Shown here in pieces: positions 4,940 through 30,982 of a DNA stretch of 50,626 bases (positions within the stretch are counted from its first letter, which is position 1; each line of letters begins with the position of its first letter). The stretch is taken from positions 1 through 50,626 of the forward strand of contig JBDSOU010000158.1 of assembly GCA_039914625.1 (NCBI GenBank), in the 5' to 3' direction. The notes under the pieces were generated by a model. It saw only the letters and a list, made by a program, of their open reading frames with translations. It did not search any database and had not been told where the DNA came from. The position numbers were made by a program, and so were the translations under genes. The DNA is from Bacteroidia bacterium. GTDB taxonomy: Bacteria > Bacteroidota > Bacteroidia > AKYH767-A > OLB10.

Positions 4940-5872
4940 CTATTTTTTAACAGCGTGTATCATGCGGCTTTTTCCGCTTATATCCTGCTTTTCAGCCACA
5001 TCAGTAAATCCTTTTGCCGAAAGCATGTCAGAAATTTCATAACTTAAATTTTCATTCATTTCAAAATACAGACTGCCATTTCTTTTTAACAAGCCTCCAG
5101 AAGCCAGATGAGCTATACGTTCATAAAACAACAATGGGTTTTTATCCTCCACAAACAAAGCAATATGCGGCTCATGATCGGTTACGTTGCGGTGCATTTT
5201 CATTTTCTCATGACTTGATATGTAAGGTGGATTGCTTACAATTAAATTAAAAGAATGTTGTGAACTCAGAGATGAATTCAAAATATTCACTTGAATAAAA
5301 TTTATTTCAGTTTCATTCAGAGCTGCATTCTTGCGGGCAACCAGCAATGCATCTTCCGAAATATCAACAGCAGTTACTTTTGAATGAGGAATATTTTTTT
5401 TCAATGAAATTGCAATACAGCCGCTTCCTGTTCCAATGTCAAGAATGCGGAATTCAGAAATCGGATGTTGGAAATCAGATGTTGGATATTGAATTTTACC
5501 CTTATAATTGACAATTGGTAATTGGTAATTGGTAATTTGTTCATTGTACTCCTCAATTATCCATTCCACAAGCTCTTCTGTTTCCGGCCGGGGAATTAAT
5601 ACATTTTTATTGACCAGGAATCTGCTTCTCAAAAAGTCTGTTTCCCCAACAATATATTGCAGGGGTTCATATGTTTTAAGTCTGTTTAAAATTTCATGTG
5701 AATGCAGTAGTTGCTTTGCATTTATTTTTTCTTGCTTCTTTAAAATAATATCAGGGGAAGAAAATTTTAATGCGTGTCGTAAAGCATTTTGTGTGATCGC
5801 TTTTATTTCGCTCTCATCGTAAAGCTCTTTTAGCTCATCGTAATATTTTTTTATCAGTTGTTCAACCAGCAT
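4940..5872 (-). CDS. prmC: peptide chain release factor N5-glutamine methyltransferase (PrmC/HemK)
   Basis: Motifs ILDIGTGSGCI (SAM binding) and IVSNPPYI (NPPY catalytic motif), plus RPETEELVEW. I prefer the internal ATG at 5872 (MLVEQLIKKYY...) because the listed start at 6013 would overlap the divergent ribD start. Confidence 0.85.
   Translation of the reverse strand: MLVEQLIKKYYDELKELYDESEIKAITQNALRHALKFSSPDIILKKQEKINAKQLLHSHEILNRLKTYEPLQYIVGETDFLRSRFLVNKNVLIPRPETEELVEWIIEEYNEQITNYQLPIVNYKGKIQYPTSDFQHPISEFRILDIGTGSGCIAISLKKNIPHSKVTAVDISEDALLVARKNAALNETEINFIQVNILNSSLSSQHSFNLIVSNPPYISSHEKMKMHRNVTDHEPHIALFVEDKNPLLFYERIAHLASGGLLKRNGSLYFEMNENLSYEISDMLSAKGFTDVAEKQDISGKSRMIHAVKK
5455..5545. repeat. 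In-frame repeat-built insertion inside prmC: (AATTGGT)x3-4 plus a 14-nt direct repeat
   Basis: AATTGGT AATTGGT AATTGGT AATTTGT lies at 5513-5540, and GGATGTTGGAAATC / AGATGTTGGATATT at 5463-5490. Together they encode ..QITNYQLPIVNYKGKIQYPTSDFQHPISE.. between the conserved EELVEW and ILDIGTGSG motifs. Confidence 0.8.
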
Positions 5873-10315: not shown

Positions 10316-12928
10316 ATGAGCACATCCCGCCAACTTGCCGCTATACTGTTTGCCGATATACAGGGCTATACTGCACTGATGCAGGATGATGAAGCCAAAG
10401 CAAACTCTTTTCGGGAAAAACTTAAAAGGAATTTAGACGAGGAGACTCTTCTTCATAACGGACGCATTCTAAAGTTAAGCGGAGATGGGGCGTTATGTAG
10501 TTTCAATAGTGCTATTGAAGCTGTGCGTGCCGCTATTGGAATTCAGGAGGCAATGTTCATGGAGCCAAAGGTCCCGTTGCGTATTGGCATACACTTGGGT
10601 GACGTGATGTTTGAAGATGGAGATGTTTATGGTGACGGTGTGAATGTCGCTTCAAGAATTGAATCATTTGCCGTGCCCGAAGCAGTTTTTATTTCAGGAA
10701 AAGTGTTTGATGAAATAAAAAATCAGAAGGACATTGAAGCAGTTTCGCTCGGAAGATATTTACTCAAAAATGTAAAAGAGCCGGTGGAAATATATGCCAT
10801 CAGTAACTCCGGTTTACAGGTTCCGGATAAAATTAAACTCGCAGGGAAGGGTGTAAAATATTCAGAGCACAGATCAGTAAAAAATTTAAAATCAACAATC
10901 CTAAAAATCGGGATACCCATCATAGCGGCCTGCATTCTTGGATTTTTATTTATTCCTTCATGGTTTAAAAAACAAAACGCACGAAATGTTTTATTGCCTG
11001 CCATTCAAAGATTAGTGGATGAAAATTTTCGTCCGCCAACTGAAGCATTGGATATGGCAGTGGAAGCGGAAAAATATATTCCTGCTGATTCTGCATTAAT
11101 CAAATTGTGGCCATTAATTTCTACTGATGTTTCCTTTGAAACAAACCCGGCAGCAGCTGAAGTGTTTTGGAAAGATTATGACAAACCGGAAGCTGCATGG
11201 CGTACTGCTGGTACCACACCATTAAAGGGCTGGCGCTTTCCACGCGGCTATGTTCGAATGGAAATAAGAAAGAACGGTTTCCAAACCATTGAATATGCCG
11301 GACCGTGGGCTTACGGAAAATTGGGAAATGAATTATCACAACTGAAATTAGATTCTGCAGGAAGCCTTCCGGAAAACATGGTGCGTATTCCAATGAGTAA
11401 GCCCGACATGTATATAGTCGGACTGGAACAGTATGGCGGAAAAAATGTAGGCGAATTTTTAATTGATAAGTATGAGGTTACCAATAAAGATTTCAAAATA
11501 TTTATGGATGCTGGAGGATATACTCATAAATTATATTGGAACCATCCTGTTAGTGCCAATGGAAAAGAAATTCCTCTTGATTCAGCTTTGGTATTATTTA
11601 CTGACAAAACAGGAAGACAGGGACCAGCCAATTGGGAAGCCGGCACTTATCCGGATGGACAGGAAAATTTTCCGGTAACAGGAGTTTCATGGTACGAAGC
11701 TTCGGCTTATGGAGCTTACGTCAAAAAACAACTTCCCACCGTTTTTCACTGGGGCGCTGTAGCTGCCACTTCGCGTACACAGTTCATTGTTCCGTTAAGT
11801 AATTTTAATGGTAAATCTGCTGTTGATGTTGGAAGCAATCCCGGCTATTGTTCATTTGGTGTTTATGACCTGGCGGGCAATGCACGTGAATGGTGCTTCA
11901 ATGAAAGTACGAATCGGGGTCAACATTTTATATTAGGTGGGGGATGGAATGATCCGAAGTATGCGTTTAATGACAGCTATACACAATCGGCATCAGACAG
12001 AAGCATAACAAACGGTTTCCGTTGCATCAAAGAGCTTCCCGGAGATACCACTTTGGCTGGTCTGACTGGAGAAGTATCACTTGCTTTCCGTGACTACCGG
12101 AAAGAGAAACCCGTGGACGATAAGACTTTTGCTTTTATACTTAACCAGTATGCTTACGACAAAAAACCTTTGGATGCCAAAACAGAAAAAACTATTGAGG
12201 GCGAAAGCTGGATAGCAGAAAAAATTTCATTTGATGCAGGTTACAATAATGAACGATTGGATATATACCTGTATTTGCCAAAAAAATTTAAGGCACCTTT
12301 TCAACCGGTTTTGTTTTTTCCCGGCTCAGGCGATATTTTTTCAAAACAATACGATCCGCAATCCATCAATGGACGAATTGATTTCATATTAAAAAGCGGA
12401 AGGGCTATAATACGTCCTATATATAAAGGAACTCATGAAAGGCATGATGATTTGAAATCAGATTTACAGGACACAACAGTTTTTTATAAAGATCATATTA
12501 TTATGTGGCGCAAAGAAATCGGCAGAACAATAGATTTCCTTGAAACACGAGCCGATATGCAGGCGGATAAAGTTGGATTTCTTGGTTGGAGCTGGGGAGG
12601 GTTTCTTGGAGGTATTATTCCTGCTATTGAGAAAAGAATTAAAGTTGTTGTTCTCAATGTTGGTGGGATGGAAATGCACAAGGCTTTGCCCGAAGCGGAT
12701 CAAATAAATTTTCTGCCACGTGTTACACAACCGGTATTAATGCTGAATGGAAAGCATGATATGTATTTTCCTGTTGAAACCTCGCAAAAACCCATGTACG
12801 ATCTGTTAGGGTCACCAAAAGAAGATAAGAAAATTATCATTTACGAATCAGGACATTTGGTACCGCGAACTGATTTTGTAAAAGAAACACTGCTATGGTA
12901 CGATAAATATCTCGGGAGGGTGAAATAA
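10316..12928 (+). CDS. multidomain membrane protein: class III adenylate/guanylate cyclase - TM - PEGA-like - FGE-sulfatase (SUMF1)-like - alpha/beta hydrolase
   Basis: Cyclase motifs in aa 5-170: ILFADIQGYT, LKLSGDGAL, RIGIHLGDV, GDGVNVASR. TM at aa 194-216. PEGA-like segment at aa 270-328 (FETNPAAAEVF...GTTPLKGWRFPRGYVRMEIRKNGF). SUMF1-like region at aa 355-572 (FLIDKYEVTNKDF, FPVTGVSWYEASAY, YDLAGNAREW, GFRC). Hydrolase region at aa 640-865 with a GWSWG elbow (Ser codon 12590-12592), plus KHD and SGH. Confidence 0.8.
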   Translation: MSTSRQLAAILFADIQGYTALMQDDEAKANSFREKLKRNLDEETLLHNGRILKLSGDGALCSFNSAIEAVRAAIGIQEAMFMEPKVPLRIGIHLGDVMFEDGDVYGDGVNVASRIESFAVPEAVFISGKVFDEIKNQKDIEAVSLGRYLLKNVKEPVEIYAISNSGLQVPDKIKLAGKGVKYSEHRSVKNLKSTILKIGIPIIAACILGFLFIPSWFKKQNARNVLLPAIQRLVDENFRPPTEALDMAVEAEKYIPADSALIKLWPLISTDVSFETNPAAAEVFWKDYDKPEAAWRTAGTTPLKGWRFPRGYVRMEIRKNGFQTIEYAGPWAYGKLGNELSQLKLDSAGSLPENMVRIPMSKPDMYIVGLEQYGGKNVGEFLIDKYEVTNKDFKIFMDAGGYTHKLYWNHPVSANGKEIPLDSALVLFTDKTGRQGPANWEAGTYPDGQENFPVTGVSWYEASAYGAYVKKQLPTVFHWGAVAATSRTQFIVPLSNFNGKSAVDVGSNPGYCSFGVYDLAGNAREWCFNESTNRGQHFILGGGWNDPKYAFNDSYTQSASDRSITNGFRCIKELPGDTTLAGLTGEVSLAFRDYRKEKPVDDKTFAFILNQYAYDKKPLDAKTEKTIEGESWIAEKISFDAGYNNERLDIYLYLPKKFKAPFQPVLFFPGSGDIFSKQYDPQSINGRIDFILKSGRAIIRPIYKGTHERHDDLKSDLQDTTVFYKDHIIMWRKEIGRTIDFLETRADMQADKVGFLGWSWGGFLGGIIPAIEKRIKVVVLNVGGMEMHKALPEADQINFLPRVTQPVLMLNGKHDMYFPVETSQKPMYDLLGSPKEDKKIIIYESGHLVPRTDFVKETLLWYDKYLGRVK

Positions 12929-16763: not shown

Positions 16764-17030
16764 ATGCCCAGAACAAAAATCATTTCCGGTTTCAGCAAGC
16801 GCGAGATGCAGGTGCTGCTCTTATTAAGTTTTAATCTTACGAAAAAAGAAACAGCCAAATTATTATTTATCAGTTACCTCACGGTCAGAACCCATGTGAC
16901 CAATATGTATGCCCGGCATGAGGTGAGTTCAATTCAATCTTTGCTGATGATTGCTGTGCTGGGCAACCATATTAAAGGAATATTTTTTAACAACAATGGC
17001 GGGCTTACCTCTTCAATATGTCTCAACTGA
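16764..17030 (+). CDS. small stand-alone LuxR/GerE-type HTH transcriptional regulator
   Basis: FSKREMQVLLLLSFNLTKKETAKLLFISYLTVRTHVTNMY matches the GerE HTH signature (S.RE..VL.L...G....EIA..L.IS..TV..H..NI). I prefer the ATG at 16764; the listed ORF starts at a TTG at 16698. Confidence 0.7.
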   Translation: MPRTKIISGFSKREMQVLLLLSFNLTKKETAKLLFISYLTVRTHVTNMYARHEVSSIQSLLMIAVLGNHIKGIFFNNNGGLTSSICLN

Positions 17031-17046
17031 CTTATTAACCCGATAA

Positions 17047-17066
17047 AATACATCAATTGATGTATT
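17047..17066. promoter_or_regulatory. perfect 20-bp palindrome AATACATCAA|TTGATGTATT just downstream of the HTH gene
   Basis: The two 10-nt arms are exact reverse complements with no spacer. No T-tract follows, so an operator-type site is at least as likely as a terminator. Confidence 0.4.
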
Positions 17067-17186
17067 GTAAGGTCAGTTAATGATGCTTTCCTTTGTGCGG
17101 GTTATCAGAACAGATACGATAACAGCGTTCTTTAACAAGTTATTTCAATCAACCTGCCAATTAAGCTAAATAACTGACTATCAGCC

Positions 17187-17438
17187 ACCGCTAACCGGTT
17201 AGCCGCCTTAGCTATTCGGTTAGCGGTGTCAGCTATTCGGTTAGCGGCTTCAGCGGGTTGGTTAGCAGGGTCTGCTAAATGGTTATCAGTATCTGCTATA
17301 TAGTTGGCCATTTCAGCTAATTGGTTGCGGGCATCAGCAATTCAGAAATTTATCATTGCTGGTCAAAAGTTAATCATTGCTGGTTGGTTGCCTGTTTCAG
17401 CTATTAAGTTGCCGCAATCAGCAATATGGTTACCGGTA
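17187..17438. repeat. 12 in-phase copies of a 21-bp tandem repeat (consensus about TCAGCTAWWYGGTTAGCGGNN)
   Basis: Units start at 17187, 17208, 17229, 17250, 17271, 17292, 17313, 17334, 17355, 17376, 17397 and 17418, with no indel over 252 bp. Unit 1 contains the perfect palindrome GCTAACCGGTTAGC. A 13th degenerate, out-of-phase unit lies around 17163-17186. The array ends 90 bp before the ATG at 17528. Confidence 0.9.
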
Positions 17439-17527
17439 TAAAAACATCCTGTTTTGACTTTGTAAATACATTTATTATAAAAAACACATTAAATAAATCA
17501 AATATTAATCTTTAAAAATTTAACAAC

Positions 17528-18451
17528 ATGCCAGAACCGATAAAAAGAGCATTCCACATTTCTGATCCTGAAATGATAGGGGATGCACGAGTTAAACATG
17601 CCGCTTTTTTAGAAGACAAAGCGGATTTTGTGGTTTATGATGCTGACTTTGATGATCCATTTTCAGATAATTTTCTCGCTGACATTGACGCAGCCGAAGT
17701 TACCGAAGATGATGAAACCATACTGGACCAGCAGCAACAGCTTACTGTGAAAGTAGAAAAGGAAATGGATAAATGCCGCGACAAGTTCCAGGACAGCAAG
17801 CCCTTTATCATCAAAGCATTTCCGGATGATACCGAAATTCAAAATGAATTCGGATTTAATGATTATAAGAAAGCACAAAGCAACCAGGGAGTTTTCACCA
17901 AATTCATGCTCAAGTTTCACGGTGTTGCTACCAAGTACAATACAGAACTGATTGCCAAAAATTATTTACAGCCCAAAATTGATGAAATATTAACACTCTA
18001 TACCAAGTTGCGCGATGCCGATGTGGCGCAGGAATTATTTATTAAAAACCGTCCTGTAAAAACTAAAGAACGCATAGTGAAATATAATAAAGCATGGAAC
18101 GGTGAACAACTGATATGCGCAGCCGGCAAACGGATTTATAAAGATGATTATGCTAAATACCAGCGCTACCTGCTTCCGCCCGGTGAAGAATCGCCCGAAG
18201 CGCTTTCTATAAAAGGCACAATTACCAATTCGGTTTCTAATGCTCCTGAAGAGGATGTAAATGTACAGATAGAAGCTAACGGGATTTTAGTTTTAAGCAA
18301 CGGCCTGGGACTTTACGGCATTGGCGGGCTTCCGGCAGGAACCTACTCACTCAGGTTTATAAAAACCGGGTTGCAGGATAAATTAATGGATGCCGTGGTG
18401 GTAACGGATGGCGAAGTAACCACGTTAAATGTGGTGATGGATCCTGTGTGA
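17528..18451 (+). CDS. hypothetical protein: acidic helical N-terminal region plus C-terminal carboxypeptidase-regulatory-like beta-sandwich
   Basis: ATG start and no signal peptide. The C-terminal ~85 aa (IKGTITNS...DVNVQIEANG...GLPAGTYSLRFIKTGLQDKLMDAVVVTDGEVTTLNVVM) fit the CarboxypepD_reg pattern. An intrinsic terminator follows. Confidence 0.6.
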   Translation: MPEPIKRAFHISDPEMIGDARVKHAAFLEDKADFVVYDADFDDPFSDNFLADIDAAEVTEDDETILDQQQQLTVKVEKEMDKCRDKFQDSKPFIIKAFPDDTEIQNEFGFNDYKKAQSNQGVFTKFMLKFHGVATKYNTELIAKNYLQPKIDEILTLYTKLRDADVAQELFIKNRPVKTKERIVKYNKAWNGEQLICAAGKRIYKDDYAKYQRYLLPPGEESPEALSIKGTITNSVSNAPEEDVNVQIEANGILVLSNGLGLYGIGGLPAGTYSLRFIKTGLQDKLMDAVVVTDGEVTTLNVVMDPV

Positions 18452-18454
18452 TGA

Positions 18455-18535
18455 GGGGATTGGGTAATTGGGATAATTGGGTAATTGGGATAATTAAGGT
18501 AATTGGGTAATTGGGGTAATTAAGGTAATTGGGAA
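18455..18535. repeat. GGTAATT-based 8-9-nt tandem array (about 9 units)
   Basis: gggattgggtaattgggataattgggtaattgggataattaaggtaattgggtaattggggtaattaaggtaattggg. It has the same core as the heptamer tract inside prmC (5513-5540). Confidence 0.85.
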
Positions 18536-18536
18536 A

Positions 18537-18567
18537 ACCGTTCCGGTAAATGGGGACGGTTTTTTTT
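18537..18567 (+). terminator. rho-independent terminator
   Basis: An 8-bp stem ACCGTTCC / GGGACGGT (one G-U pair) with an 8-nt loop, followed by T8. Confidence 0.7.
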
Positions 18568-18594: not shown

Positions 18595-18789
18595 ATGGAA
18601 TTTGAGCACATCACATCTGACAGCAACATACTTGGCGGCAAGCCATGCATTACCGGAACTCGCATAAGCGTGGATATGATTTTGGAATGGATAGCATCAG
18701 GAGCTTCTATTGCCGATGTGGTAAAAAATTATCCGTCCCTTTCAGAAGAAGCCGTAAAGGAAGCGGTGCTTTATGCATCAACTATTTAA
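18595..18789 (+). CDS. DUF433-family protein (antitoxin-like HTH)
   Basis: ILGGKPCITGTRISVDMILEWIASGASIADVVKNYPSLSEEAVKEAVLYA matches the DUF433 signature (GkP.I.GTRI.V..IL......G.S.eeI...YP.Ls.e.i..Al.YA). Confidence 0.75.
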   Translation: MEFEHITSDSNILGGKPCITGTRISVDMILEWIASGASIADVVKNYPSLSEEAVKEAVLYASTI

Positions 18790-18904: not shown

Positions 18905-20485
18905 ATGAAAACATTTTATAAGATTATTTTAATGTTCAATGTGCACTATTCAATTTTCAATGTTCCATGTTTTTCTCAAACTGCTCCGGGGATTGAGTGG
19001 GCAAAATGTTACGGAGGTTCTGATGATGATGGGGCATATTCTATTGATCAAACAACTGATGGAGGTTATGTAGTAACCGGCCGTTCAAATTCCACTAACG
19101 GAGATATAACAATCCATTATGGTTCCACTGATTATTGGGTGGCAAAAATTGATAGTGCAGGAACTATACAATGGCAGAAATCATTAGGCGGAACCGATAC
19201 TGACATAGGAAATTCCATTCAGCAAACAACTGATGGGGGTTTTGTAGCAGCAGGAATTTCATTTTCGAATGACAGTAATGTAACGGGCAATCATGGTGGC
19301 GCTGATTACTGGGTGGTAAAGCTCGACAGTGCGGGCAGCATTCAATGGCAAAAAAGTCTTGGCGGTACAGGCTGGGATGGTGCCACATCTGTTTTGCAAG
19401 CTGATGACGGAAGCTATGTGGTTGCAGGCTTGTCAACATCCAATGATGGTGATGTAACCGGCAATCATGGCGGCTATGATTACTGGGTTGTAAAACTTGA
19501 TAGCAGTGGCAACCTTCTATGGCAAAAATGTTTTGGAGGAACAGCAGATGATGGTGCTGAATTTATTAAACAAACCAATGACGGAGGATATATGGTAGTT
19601 GGTGAGTCAAATTCCAATGATGGAGATGTAACAGGTAATCATGGCAACTTTGATTACTGGGTTGTAAAAATTGATTCGGCCGGAACTATTCAATGGCAAA
19701 AATCATCAGGAGGTACAAATCTTGATTATGCATATTCCTTTTGCCAGTCAGCTGACGGAAGCTATATGGTATTCGGTAATACATTTTCAAATGACAGTGA
19801 TGTAACAGGCAATCATGGCGGTTCTGATTACTGGGTAATTAAGCTTGATAGTTCAGGTAGTTTTCAATGGCAGAAATGCTTTGGCGGAACTGGTAACGAG
19901 AGGGCACAATCTATTGTGCAAACAACGGATGGCAGGTATGTGCTTGCCGGTTTTTCAAATTCCAATAACGGAGATGTAACAATCAGTTATGGCAACGGAG
20001 ATTTCTGGATAGTAAAGATAGACAGTTCCGGAACTATACACTGGCAGAAATCATTAGGAGGAACAAATACAGATTGGGCATATTCCATTCAGCATACTAC
20101 AGATGGCGCTTATGTGATTGCCGGTAATTCATATTCCATAGACAACGATGTATCAGGAAACCATGGTAACGGAGATTATTGGGTTGTTAAACTCAGACCG
20201 GAGGAGGGAACCGGCATTCCCAATTTTCAATATTCAATCACGAATCTTCAAATTTCCCCCAACCCCGCAAAAGAGTTTACAGTTATCAATTACCAATTTA
20301 TAAAAGGAGATGAAATACGAATTATCGATGTGTTAGGTGAAACAATTTTTGCAAAAATCTTTTCATCTCCAACTTTAAACTTTAAACTTCAAACCTTAAA
20401 CTATCCTGCGGGAGTTTATTTGTTTAATCTTGCTAATGAAAAAACACGAGAGAGGGTGAATGGGAAAATTGTGGTTAGCAATTAA
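18905..20485 (+). CDS. T9SS-sorted secreted protein built from ~7 tandem 47-48-aa repeats
   Basis: The repeated block is GG..xD.xxS..QTxDGGYV.xGxSxSNDGDVTGNHGxxDYWVVKLDSxGxxQWQK. The C-terminus LQISPNPAKEFTVINY...LNYPAGVYLFNL...GKIVV fits the type-A CTD. Confidence 0.8.
   Translation: MKTFYKIILMFNVHYSIFNVPCFSQTAPGIEWAKCYGGSDDDGAYSIDQTTDGGYVVTGRSNSTNGDITIHYGSTDYWVAKIDSAGTIQWQKSLGGTDTDIGNSIQQTTDGGFVAAGISFSNDSNVTGNHGGADYWVVKLDSAGSIQWQKSLGGTGWDGATSVLQADDGSYVVAGLSTSNDGDVTGNHGGYDYWVVKLDSSGNLLWQKCFGGTADDGAEFIKQTNDGGYMVVGESNSNDGDVTGNHGNFDYWVVKIDSAGTIQWQKSSGGTNLDYAYSFCQSADGSYMVFGNTFSNDSDVTGNHGGSDYWVIKLDSSGSFQWQKCFGGTGNERAQSIVQTTDGRYVLAGFSNSNNGDVTISYGNGDFWIVKIDSSGTIHWQKSLGGTNTDWAYSIQHTTDGAYVIAGNSYSIDNDVSGNHGNGDYWVVKLRPEEGTGIPNFQYSITNLQISPNPAKEFTVINYQFIKGDEIRIIDVLGETIFAKIFSSPTLNFKLQTLNYPAGVYLFNLANEKTRERVNGKIVVSN
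20371..20401. repeat. (AAACTTT)-type heptamer tract embedded in frame in the CTD coding region
   Basis: aactttaaactttaaacttcaaaccttaaac encodes ..TLNFKLQTLN... The 18-mer CAACTTTAAACTTTAAAC is identical to the intergenic tract at 28630-28647. Confidence 0.75.
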
Positions 20486-28629: not shown

Positions 28630-28656
28630 AACTTTAAACTTTAAACCTTAAACTTG
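28630..28656. repeat. (AAACTTT)-type heptamer tract
   Basis: caactttaaactttaaaccttaaactt lies immediately after the stop of ORF 28658..29164 and upstream of the start of ORF 28183..28572. This is the same placement as the tract at 1498-1532. Confidence 0.8.
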
Positions 28657-29685: not shown

Positions 29686-29770
29686 GATTCAAAAATAAAA
29701 ATCTTATCTTAATTAAGAGGAATGTAAATTAAATATCTTTGTGTGTAAAAGAAGTGAAGAAAAGAAATTA

Positions 29771-30982
29771 ATGCGATCAAAATTTTCACGGATAAAAATA
29801 TCAAGAGGTTTCACCTTGGTTTTCATGCTACTATGCAGTTTCAAATCTTTTGCCCAACAGCGTAACGTAAATGTTCTGATAAATTTTAAAATCGAAGAAG
29901 GCAATTTCGATAAATCTTATGTGGTGATGGAAAACACCTCAACCGGTGAAAAGCAGACTATTCCCGGTCAATCGAAATATTCCTTAACCCTGAAATTTAA
30001 TAGTGATTACATTCTCTCCTTTAACAAGCCCGGGTTTATCACAAAAAAAATTGAACTTAATACTTCAGCTCCTGCCGACAGAATTGAACAGGGATTTTAT
30101 CCGATTGAAATGAACGTAATTCTGATTAAACAATACGATGGTGTAAACATCGTGGTATTTAATCAACCGGTAGGGAAATATAAATATATTCCAGGCAGGG
30201 ATGGGTTTGATTATGATACGGATTACACCAAGCAAATTCAATCCGCTTTAAAAGAGGCCGAAGATGAACTTGCCGCAAAGCAAAAAGAAGAAAAAGAGAA
30301 TGCTCCGGCTATTGCAAAAGCTGCTGAAAAAGCAAAAATGGATTCCATAGCAAACTCAAAAGCTGAGGCAAAAGCAAAGTTGGAAGAAGAACAGCAACAG
30401 AAAACAGAGACCAAAGCAAAACTTGAAGCAGAAGCAAAAGCGAAAAATGATTCCATAGCACAGGCAAAAAAAGACTCATTTGCTAAGACAGAGGAGGAAA
30501 AACGCCAGCAAGCCAAAGCAAAAATGGAAGACGATGAACGGAAAAAAGCTGCTGCAAAATCTGAAGAAGAAGAAAAAGTTAAAACCACAAAAGCCAACGC
30601 TGACGAAGAAGCGAGAAAAAAAACGATTGCAAAACAGGAAGAAAATGAAAGAAAGAAATTGACTGCAAGTGCAAGTATGGGAAGTGATTTAAAAAAATCT
30701 GCCATTGCTATTGAAGGGAACGATCAGAAATTGAAGCAACTTGCACTTCCGAATAGCGGGAGTTCCGTTCATGAACCGGAGAAATCAGAATCGCTGCCTC
30801 CGAATGTGAATGTAGAAGATATTATTGAAAACAACAGGACAATTAAAAAAGCCATAGTAAGCACAGGCACTAAGGAAACTGTTTATCTGAAAATTATTTA
30901 TAAGTGGGGTGGAGTTTTTTATTTCAAAAATGACCAAAGCATTAGTCAAACTGCTTTTCAACTGGCAACGAACTTGAAGTAG
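29771..30982 (+). CDS. envelope protein with N-terminal beta-rich domain and long Lys/Glu/Ala-rich low-complexity region
   Basis: Signal peptide MRSKFSRIKISRGFTLVFMLLCSFKSFAQQ from the ATG at 29771 (the listed GTG is at 29741). About 150 aa are KAEAKAKLEEE-type charged repeats, a TolA-like composition. Confidence 0.6.
   Translation: MRSKFSRIKISRGFTLVFMLLCSFKSFAQQRNVNVLINFKIEEGNFDKSYVVMENTSTGEKQTIPGQSKYSLTLKFNSDYILSFNKPGFITKKIELNTSAPADRIEQGFYPIEMNVILIKQYDGVNIVVFNQPVGKYKYIPGRDGFDYDTDYTKQIQSALKEAEDELAAKQKEEKENAPAIAKAAEKAKMDSIANSKAEAKAKLEEEQQQKTETKAKLEAEAKAKNDSIAQAKKDSFAKTEEEKRQQAKAKMEDDERKKAAAKSEEEEKVKTTKANADEEARKKTIAKQEENERKKLTASASMGSDLKKSAIAIEGNDQKLKQLALPNSGSSVHEPEKSESLPPNVNVEDIIENNRTIKKAIVSTGTKETVYLKIIYKWGGVFYFKNDQSISQTAFQLATNLK

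Follow-up and report, generated by a model that had tools for sequence, protein, structure and literature searches.

A phased array of 21-bp repeats linked to a family of helical-domain proteins in uncultured Bacteroidota: an apparently undescribed element and candidate protein-binding platform

Contig JBDSOU010000158.1 of a Bacteroidia bacterium (assembly GCA_039914625.1) carries a row of twelve in-phase 21-bp repeats between the gene for a solo LuxR/GerE-type helix-turn-helix (HTH) protein and the gene for a 307-aa protein. The stretch was analyzed over its full 50,626 nucleotides, here called the window; all positions follow window numbering, WIN designates the window locus, and L001-L082 are related loci fetched for comparison. 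The 88-aa HTH gene lies at 16764-17030 on the plus strand, the array at 17187-17438, and the 307-aa gene at 17528-18451 on the plus strand. The HTH stop codon is 156 bp from the array, which in turn is 89 bp from the ATG of the 307-aa gene. Nearly all relatives of the downstream gene have an array of this kind, and the array of the window is one example of this apparently undescribed element. It is conserved, linked exclusively to that gene family, non-coding, strictly phased and independent of orientation, and it has a distinct junction architecture.

The array has no assigned strand and its units share the consensus TCAGCTATTCGGTTAGCGGTG. An earlier sequence-only reading of this DNA had described twelve units free of insertions or deletions, and stepping by 21 from position 17187 keeps perfect register throughout; the coordinates and distances which that reading gave for the array and the flanking features were all correct. 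Units 2-7 and 11-12 resemble the consensus, and units 8-10 are strongly diverged. Self-identity of 17187-17438 reaches 0.60 at a lag of 21, 0.50 at 42 and 0.48 at 63, and is at most 0.36 at every other lag from 1 to 69. Tandem Repeats Finder calls only 17196-17305, which holds the best-conserved units. In units 1-4 each 21-mer consists of two direct TYAGC half-sites whose spacing alternates between 9 and 12 bp, and TYAGC occurs 11 times in the array where 0.47 are expected. All five sites in the 50.6-kb window that match GCTANNNGGTTAGC with no more than one mismatch lie within the array (0.26 expected). The units are contiguous, with no spacers, and the array therefore lacks the repeat-spacer architecture of clustered regularly interspaced short palindromic repeats (CRISPR). 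The sole other periodic match in the window at lags of 15-30 is a lag-24 periodicity at 30328-30477, inside the open reading frame (ORF) at 29741-30982.

The gene-distal junction of the array bears a perfect 14-bp palindrome, GCTAACCGGTTAGC (17190-17203), found where it had been claimed in unit 1. This palindrome is explained by a feature of about 20 of the arrays, which start with one or more reverse-complement units. In the window a reverse-complement copy of about 1.3 units (17171-17196, no strand assigned) occupies the promoter-distal edge and forms with unit 1 the junction GCTAACC/GGTTAGC. A longer inverted repeat, I1, has 33-nt arms at 17171-17203 and 17211-17243 that are 79% complementary. 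Among related arrays, an inverted unit at or before the gene-distal edge is present in about 20 of 45, compared with roughly 0.01-0.2 expected per locus, and L025, L028, L041 and L074 have whole inverted arms, in which 4-7 inverted units are followed by 7-11 direct ones. A different arrangement was noted in L039 (2583-2922) and L071, where a 42-bp super-unit is built of successive 21-mers carrying the reverse-complementary 8-mers CCGTATGC and GCATACGG, so that half-sites flip orientation every 21 bp.

Loci encoding relatives of the 307-aa protein were drawn from assemblies (L001-L006), species-representative genomes (L007-L042) and metagenomes (L043-L082). They amount to about 45 non-redundant loci, all from metagenome-assembled genomes (MAGs) or metagenomes and mostly from Bacteroidota, with protein identity down to about 33%. 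Roughly 55 loci extend far enough 5' of the gene for self-similarity to be compared over lags of 5-60 bp, and in about 50 of them the strongest lag is 21 or 42 and falls directly 5' of the gene. Arrays contain 5-21 units by position weight matrix matches (median 10), with extents of up to about 25 units, and the median distance from the end of the last unit to the start codon is 86 bp across the family. Successive unit spacings in the 45 non-redundant arrays are exactly 21 bp in 402 of 448 cases and a multiple of 21 in 417, and spacings of 20 or 22 bp occur twice. Unit sequences are unrelated among distant loci (for example GGGGATCGCCCGATGATGACA in L013, CATTCGGGAGAGTGATGAGAG in L035 and TATCTTCAAGGTGTCGGACGC in L074) and array G+C varies from 17 to 62%, yet the period does not change. 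At lags of 15-30, no period-21 array was found away from this gene family in 469 kb of fetched sequence and the window, and periods other than 21 were essentially absent from the same sequence.

Several MAGs hold three or four of these array-and-gene cassettes, and in one MAG each of four cassettes has its own HTH and its own unit. The cassettes L020 and L024 of MAG HK-STAS-BACT-68 have units that agree at 19 of 21 positions and genes that are 79% identical in DNA, with a single adjacent HTH, at L020 only. Where genes from independent samples or MAGs are 99-100% identical (comparisons involving L066, L067, L068, L069, L041/L073, L063/L064 and L020/L034), the arrays are identical in sequence, length and copy number. 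Loci whose genes are 94-96% identical still have the same unit but in different copy numbers, as in one pair with 12.6 and 15.3 units. The arrays thus outpace the gene and are not hypermutable. An unlinked hypervariable minisatellite, which the sequence-only reading had raised as the opposite of its own proposal, does not describe these loci, since linkage to the gene holds and near-identical loci keep identical arrays. A phase-variable contingency repeat was also considered and was rejected on the constancy of copy number among near-identical loci.

The HTH protein of the window (Pfam GerE, E 2e-10) has no receiver and no ligand domain and is basic, with an isoelectric point (pI) of 10.2. Its start at 16764 is backed by MPK/R.K N-termini common to the HTH proteins of L004, L007, L008 and L045, and a word-indexed search of 5.8 billion proteins found no close homolog, only the protein itself. 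A LuxR-type HTH adjoins the array in all loci whose downstream protein is at least about 45% identical to that of the window. The HTH gene and the downstream gene run in the same direction in the near clade (WIN, L004, L007, L008, L045) and diverge in the mid clade (L009-L014, L016, L047, L049) and in L020. In HTH-less, more distant loci the downstream protein is often a helical domain of 222-240 aa, either alone or fused to another beta domain. What accompanies the array constantly is the downstream gene and not the HTH: of the two linkages that had been put forward for checking, that with the downstream gene holds at nearly all loci, and that with the HTH is confined to about 15 of 45.

The HTH also diverges far faster than the gene, with mean pairwise identities of 28% versus 53%. 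Comparisons of WIN with L004, L007, L008 and L045 give 29-33% identity for the HTH and 64-70% for the 307-aa proteins. An extreme case is the pair L009 and L011 of MAG La1_metabat2.114, whose proteins are 94% identical while their HTHs are 23% identical and their arrays and units 62% alike; the two leaders share a stretch of about 39 nt with one mismatch, ending 50-60 bp 5' of the array. This contrast argues that the gene product is not a sequence-specific reader of its own array, and the pattern of identities suggests either gene conversion of the gene or a swap of the regulatory module. Separately, units of L008 and L045 looked by eye like reverse complements, a relationship that was not significant when no gap was allowed.

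The interval between the HTH gene and the array contains a series of conserved elements. Bacteroidetes promoters have the consensus TTG at -33 and TAnnTTTG at -7. A box of the form TTG-N20-TTCCTTTG at 17065-17095 on the plus strand, which we take to resemble this consensus, reads toward the array. In an alignment of six near-clade loci running from the HTH gene to the array (A4), the order of elements is a locus-specific palindrome, ATTG-N20-TT(C/A)CTTTG, an inverted repeat of the GTTA-N14-TAAC type and a box ACAGCGTTC(A/T)TT.AA.AGTT, and the TTG, its spacing and the TTTG are invariant in all six. The corresponding part of the window is the inverted repeat GTTATC-N11-GATAAC followed by the box ACAGCGTTCTTTAACAAGTT (17101-17141, plus strand). 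The leader GCGTTC with its flanking T's is invariant across the near clade, and L045 has GTCA...TGAC in place of the GTTA...TAAC of the window. Mid-clade loci have a TCCTTTG-type box 10-90 bp 5' of the array, with a terminator-like hairpin before the box.

A perfect 20-bp palindrome, AATACATCAATTGATGTATT, lies at 17047-17066 (no strand assigned), between the HTH gene and the array as had been reported, and its last two bases overlap the -33-like TTG. Locus-specific palindromes stand at the equivalent position in L004, L007 and L048, and the mid-clade hairpins found there are flanked by A-runs and T-runs and resemble intrinsic terminators. The palindrome may be either the terminator or insulator of the HTH gene or an operator for the HTH protein. 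Between the array and the start codon lies an AT-rich spacer (17439-17527, plus strand). No -33/-7 promoter boxes are conserved in this spacer in an alignment of seven near-clade loci (A5), where it measures about 45-90 bp. A scan with a sigma-70 promoter model, which is ill-suited to Bacteroidota, found sites no more often than in shuffled sequence.

A terminator-like hairpin at 18531-18566 (plus strand) closes the cassette, and a 64-aa DUF433 gene (18595-18789) follows directly. Short repeats of the ATTGGGTAA/TAATTGG type occupy 18459-18533, 5' of this hairpin. Short heptamer or 9-mer direct repeats, mostly intergenic, are also present at 5505-5537, 1500-1532, 18931-18971, 20371-20402 and 28630-28655, and the types in the window further include AAACTTT, AATGTTC and AACTTTA. 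Similar heptamer runs stand between the array and the start codon in L007, L048 and L017. One published account describes heptamer direct repeats just 5' of start codons in Beggiatoaceae, cyanobacteria and a few Bacteroidetes (PMC4679880).

Several properties of the arrays bear on whether they are read as duplex DNA, as RNA or as protein. The unit conservation profile has 19.4% of its power at a period of 10.5 bp, against 10.0 +/- 1.4% in permuted profiles, and none of 2000 permutations reached the observed power (p < 0.0005); each unit thus has two conserved patches, one helical turn apart. Three or more copies of the pentamer CGGAA/TTCCG are present in 18 of 45 arrays, where 1.8 such arrays are expected (z 11.7), and the copies are always in phase. 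Relative to the gene, CGGAA is on the plus strand in 13 arrays and on the minus strand in 9, and L019, L051 and L060 contain TTCCG-N5-CGGAA palindromes. The units of WIN lack CGGAA and have CGGTT instead. Together, the 10.5-bp component, the core on either strand and the inverted edge units suggest that the arrays are recognized as duplex DNA. The arrays have no strand composition bias in common, GC skew being positive in 28 of 46. The RNA of leader plus array folds better than shuffled sequence (z -4.6), and the opposite strand does so equally (z -5.3); the signal therefore stems from the inverted repeat at the DNA level, and the RNA z-scores are uninformative. A search of Rfam gave nothing at the gathering threshold and, at an E-value threshold, only sub-threshold microRNA (miRNA)-hairpin artefacts on both strands.

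Translation of the repeat deserves separate treatment, as 21 bp corresponds to seven codons. A remnant or cryptic heptad-repeat coding sequence would fit the gene-caller ORFs that fall on some arrays (98 aa on the plus strand in L003, 91 aa on the minus strand in L004) and the ANRIADT-like heptads of the window minus frame. Stop codons interrupt all six frames in the WIN array and in at least 12 other arrays; in the window the best plus frame has one TAG and the best minus frame has two TGA. Open frames, where present, fall on different strands and in different phases from one locus to another, and neither a start, a ribosome-binding site nor non-repeat termini are conserved. The differences among units have no 3-nt period (8.1% of power where 10% is expected, p 0.92). 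The coding explanation is effectively refuted: a decayed heptad-repeat gene, which the sequence-only reading had named as something that would count against its proposal, does not agree with the six-frame stops and the missing 3-nt periodicity.

The 307-aa protein comprises an acidic, all-helical N-terminal domain of about 220 aa and a transthyretin-like CarboxypepD_reg C-terminal domain. It had been described as having no recognizable N-terminal family, and searches of Pfam, PHROGs and NCBIfam indeed return only the C-terminal CarboxypepD_reg. The AlphaFold2 model of the full protein (predicted local distance difference test score, pLDDT, 93.6) combines an N-domain of long helices with a transthyretin-like C-domain. 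With this model Foldseek finds PDB fold matches that span the C-domain only, and with a model of the N-domain alone (pLDDT 89.6) it finds only generic long-helix matches at E >= 0.09. A sequence profile of the protein had no match among PDB sequences. As modeled, the N-domain appears to be a novel fold. A 222-aa relative scores 37 bits (E 2e-9) against the NCBIfam model NF052641, 'PQLLE family', below its cut-off of 80 bits, and the window protein itself does not match NF052641; by sequence, the 307-aa family is related to the PQLLE family and not a member of it. Between 55 and 83 homologs were found in 5.8 billion proteins, all hypothetical and from MAGs or metagenomes of uncultured Bacteroidota type. 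The best 150 representatives fall into at least about 100 clusters at 50% identity, a lower bound on family size because the representative search was swamped by multi-repeat CarboxypepD_reg proteins. The N-domain has a median pI of 5.0, which argues against the N-domain as a nucleic-acid binder.

Genes that flank the cassettes are ordinary chromosomal ones and vary among loci, and many loci are flanked by genes for cargo proteins with a type IX secretion system (T9SS) tail. No Rep, ParA/ParM/TubZ, integrase or relaxase genes were found within 5 kb on either side of six loci or near the window array, and L005 has one weak, partly faint CbiA/MipZ/AAA_31 match, inside a polysaccharide gene cluster. 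In tblastn searches, the 222-aa relative, which consists of the N-domain only, had no match in 50,697 phage records, and the 307-aa window protein had none in 72,556 plasmid records. Two other genes of the window attracted attention. A 526-aa T9SS-tail protein (18905-20485) is composed of tandem repeats of about 58 aa (174 bp) with the pattern ...DYWVVKLDSxGxxQWQK..., the DNA repeat being at 19278-19702, and an 870-aa protein (10316-12928) fuses an adenylate/guanylate cyclase, an FGE-sulfatase-like domain and a C-terminal serine-hydrolase fold.

The analysis supports the claim that the array is functional, does not code for protein and is tied to its neighbors. The interpretation that we put forward, at a little under an even chance, is that the array is a phased multi-protomer DNA-binding platform controlling the downstream gene; in roughly two thirds of that probability the binder would be the HTH protein. 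Here we infer that protein binds, which protein it is and which way regulation runs. The array would be a row of protein-binding sites on double-stranded DNA, in which each 21-bp unit, equal to two helical turns, would offer two contact patches one turn apart, so that bound protomers would all share one face of the helix. They would bind cooperatively and form a nucleoprotein filament about 250 bp long. The junction GCTAACC/GGTTAGC would be the likely high-affinity nucleation site, from which occupancy would spread along the direct units toward the gene. Since the array lies between the promoter-like box at 17065-17095 and the start codon, such a filament would govern expression of the 307-aa gene; in the simplest case it would be a roadblock within the transcription unit or would silence it. 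In the window and its closer relatives the binder would most likely be the adjacent, fast-evolving solo LuxR/GerE HTH, in which case each cassette would carry a private pair of regulator and operator array.

Precedent for such an arrangement exists in BvgA, a LuxR-type HTH protein that binds as head-to-head dimers centered every 22 bp on one helix face; six dimers occupy Pptx, and the strongest inverted site of Pfha is the one furthest upstream (PMC7250471). ComA-type tetrahelical HTH proteins, according to a second study, can read direct repeats too (PMC4797271). The same-face geometry proposed from the sequence is corroborated by the strict 21-bp spacing, the 10.5-bp periodicity of conservation and the palindromic promoter-distal junction. 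The proposal of a multi-dimer platform for the adjacent HTH fared unevenly: the platform geometry is supported, and the HTH as constant partner is not, as it is present at about 15 of 45 arrays; a test of low power showed no covariation between HTH and unit.

A number of observations weigh against this interpretation. A LuxR-type HTH adjoins only about 15 of 45 arrays and the remaining 30 or so have no recognizable neighboring HTH, so the HTH is not the universal binder. LuxR-type dimers usually read palindromes, and most units are direct repeats without symmetry. As an HTH site the 20-bp palindrome at 17047-17066 would be more conventional; it bears no resemblance to the unit and is an equally good or better candidate for the site of an HTH dimer. 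HTH identity and unit similarity are uncorrelated (rho 0.03 over 78 pairs, by Spearman and partial correlation) in a test of low power, unit similarity being saturated near the chance level. Homogeneity peaks in the middle of the array, the pattern that ordinary unequal crossing-over produces, and there is no gradient of unit quality away from the junction. Finally, the array is probably transcribed and would lie inside the leader rather than upstream of the promoter, because the promoter-like box is 5' of the array and none is conserved between the array and the ATG. A position inside the transcription unit would cast the filament as a roadblock, and it also makes a role at the RNA level possible.

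Such a role would have the array act within a leader of about 430 nt that starts from the upstream promoter-like box, in which the 21-nt repeats, together with a 5' hairpin made by the inverted unit, bind a protein at regular intervals or set the stability or translation of the mRNA. We regard this as unlikely, if still deserving attention. It draws on the conservation of TTG-N20-TTCCTTTG 5' of the array with no promoter between array and ATG, on the constant placement of the array between the promoter-like box and the gene, on the better-than-shuffled folding of leader plus array (z -4.6), and on the alternating complementary 8-mers of L039, which could make tandem hairpins. It has to contend with the equal folding of the opposite strand (z -5.3), with the lack of a common strand bias (positive GC skew in 28 of 46), with a CGGAA core found on either strand (13 versus 9 arrays), with a 10.5-nt periodicity of conservation that has no obvious RNA rationale, and with Rfam matches that are nothing but meaningless sub-threshold miRNA hairpins. 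To a platform serving a protein other than the neighboring HTH we give a similarly minor share of the probability. There the HTH would gate the promoter through the 20-bp palindrome, and an unlinked, family-wide factor would read the CGGAA-like cores. The roughly 30 loci that keep arrays with no adjacent HTH are in its favor, as are a core motif common to distant loci, a perfect 20-bp palindrome that is a textbook dimer site with equivalents in L004, L007 and L048, and the want of covariation between HTH and unit in the low-power test. CGGAA is, however, missing from the WIN units and about 60% of arrays, locus-specific units better fit a locally encoded, co-evolving reader, and the mid-clade equivalents of the palindrome look like intrinsic terminators and not operators.

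Homogeneous central units and decaying edge units are also what would be expected of a minisatellite, neutral or selfish and with no function, that arose a single time in the ancestry of the family and was propagated by slippage and unequal crossing-over, as is the difference in copy number between loci that are 94-96% identical. The L009 and L011 arrays, only 62% alike despite 94% identical proteins and a near-identical leader stretch, fit as well. We nevertheless consider this very unlikely: the array keeps its position down to about 33% protein identity, off-by-one spacings number just 2 of 448, the 10.5-bp pattern of conservation is non-random, the inverted boundary unit recurs, a core motif is common to many arrays, and no comparable arrays occur elsewhere in 469 kb. 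Less credible still are the iterons or partition centromere of an integrated plasmid- or phage-like element. Direct repeats of about 20 bp, two turns apart and beside a small HTH, are generally known from iterons and from centromeres of the parC/tubC type. Set against that resemblance are the lack of Rep, ParA/ParM/TubZ, integrase and relaxase genes (six loci, 5 kb to each side, and the vicinity of the window array), the lack of tblastn matches in the 50,697 phage and 72,556 plasmid records, ordinary chromosomal flanks that differ by locus, and the presence of several cassettes per genome. The suggestion that the array is a centromere- or iteron-like relic of an integrated element accordingly finds no support.

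A further reading treats the cassettes as a new phased repeat scaffold with a private code. The period would be set by a filament-forming reader, while the 21-bp sequence would drift and be re-homogenized within each array, and each paralogous gene, having its own drifting repeat, would be insulated from its siblings. In an extreme version the reader would not be a classical repressor and the scaffold would serve both as DNA and as transcribed leader; the helical product of the gene or an unlinked factor would assemble on it periodically, giving an autoregulatory ruler with no described counterpart. Taken jointly with this extreme version, the private-code reading seems to us distinctly improbable.

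Among characterized systems, the binding-platform interpretation comes closest in several respects to BvgA. BvgA is a LuxR-type HTH protein, the kind encoded next to the array in the window and at about 15 related loci, and the BvgA dimer every 22 bp or so on one face parallels the 21-bp period here. Up to six BvgA sites occur consecutively, with the strongest, inverted one furthest from the gene, much as the distal junction of the array is palindromic (PMC7250471). The BvgA spacing of two turns, with one monomer per turn, is found again in the 21-bp spacings, the 10.5-bp component and the 9/12-bp spacing of TYAGC. BvgA sites, in contrast, are degenerate and number 3-6, whereas the cassettes hold 5-25 recognizable tandem copies that are mostly direct. 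BvgA sites are 5' of the -35 element and activating, whereas the array is 3' of the sole promoter-like box. BvgA has a phosphorylated receiver, whereas the window protein is a bare 88-aa HTH and most loci have none. Unlike LuxR-type phased operators in general, the array is tied to one gene family and not to one regulator.

Plasmid iterons, such as those of P1, R6K, pSC101 and RK2, are direct repeats of 17-22 bp, about two turns apart, that are bound by Rep. As is generally known of iterons, binding is cooperative and by a protein encoded next door, and the repeat sequence is element-specific, features that would find likenesses here. The cassettes differ in having no Rep-like domain in Pfam, PHROGs or NCBIfam, no plasmid context and multiple chromosomal copies per genome; neither DnaA boxes nor an AT-rich unwinding element could be identified at them, and the linked gene is unrelated to replication. 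Centromeres include R1 parC (11 bp, ten copies), F sopC (43 bp, twelve copies), pBtoxis tubC (12 bp, seven copies) and the heptad arrays of the pSM19035 omega protein. It is general knowledge that centromeres can consist of about 10-12 short repeats, sometimes of mixed orientation, which an adaptor coats into a filament or superhelix, and this resembles the arrays. The arrays have no partner NTPase (ParA, ParM or TubZ), a different period and unit length, and no mobile replicon. Contingency repeats, among them the 7-bp repeats of Haemophilus hmw and the AGAT repeats of Moraxella uspA2, lie upstream or in the 5' untranslated region (PMC4679880). The arrays share with them the position of tandem repeats between promoter and start codon of a single gene; contingency repeats have units of 1-7 bp and are hypermutable, whereas the units here are 21 bp and arrays are identical at 99-100% gene identity. 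By the defining tests of each class, the cassette is not an iteron, a centromere, a contingency repeat, a coding heptad or a known RNA. The cassette, the name 'PQLLE' and 21-bp repeats in Bacteroidota were looked for in the literature, and no description came to light, in agreement with the initial judgment that the combination is not a described system.

If the binding-platform interpretation is true, these cassettes would comprise dozens of mutually orthogonal binding-site arrays of one fixed geometry, partly with matched regulators. They would offer a model for cooperative filaments of small HTH proteins reading DNA, a natural setting in which to follow how regulator and operator co-evolve, and perhaps a supply of insulated regulatory parts for use in Bacteroidota. 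As the case shows, strict conservation of a repeat period with no conservation of its sequence can be used to find functional non-coding arrays. The analysis also flags a sizeable uncharacterized protein family specific to uncultured lineages of Bacteroidota type, and the tight and unusual control of the 307-aa family suggests that its expression is costly or conditional.

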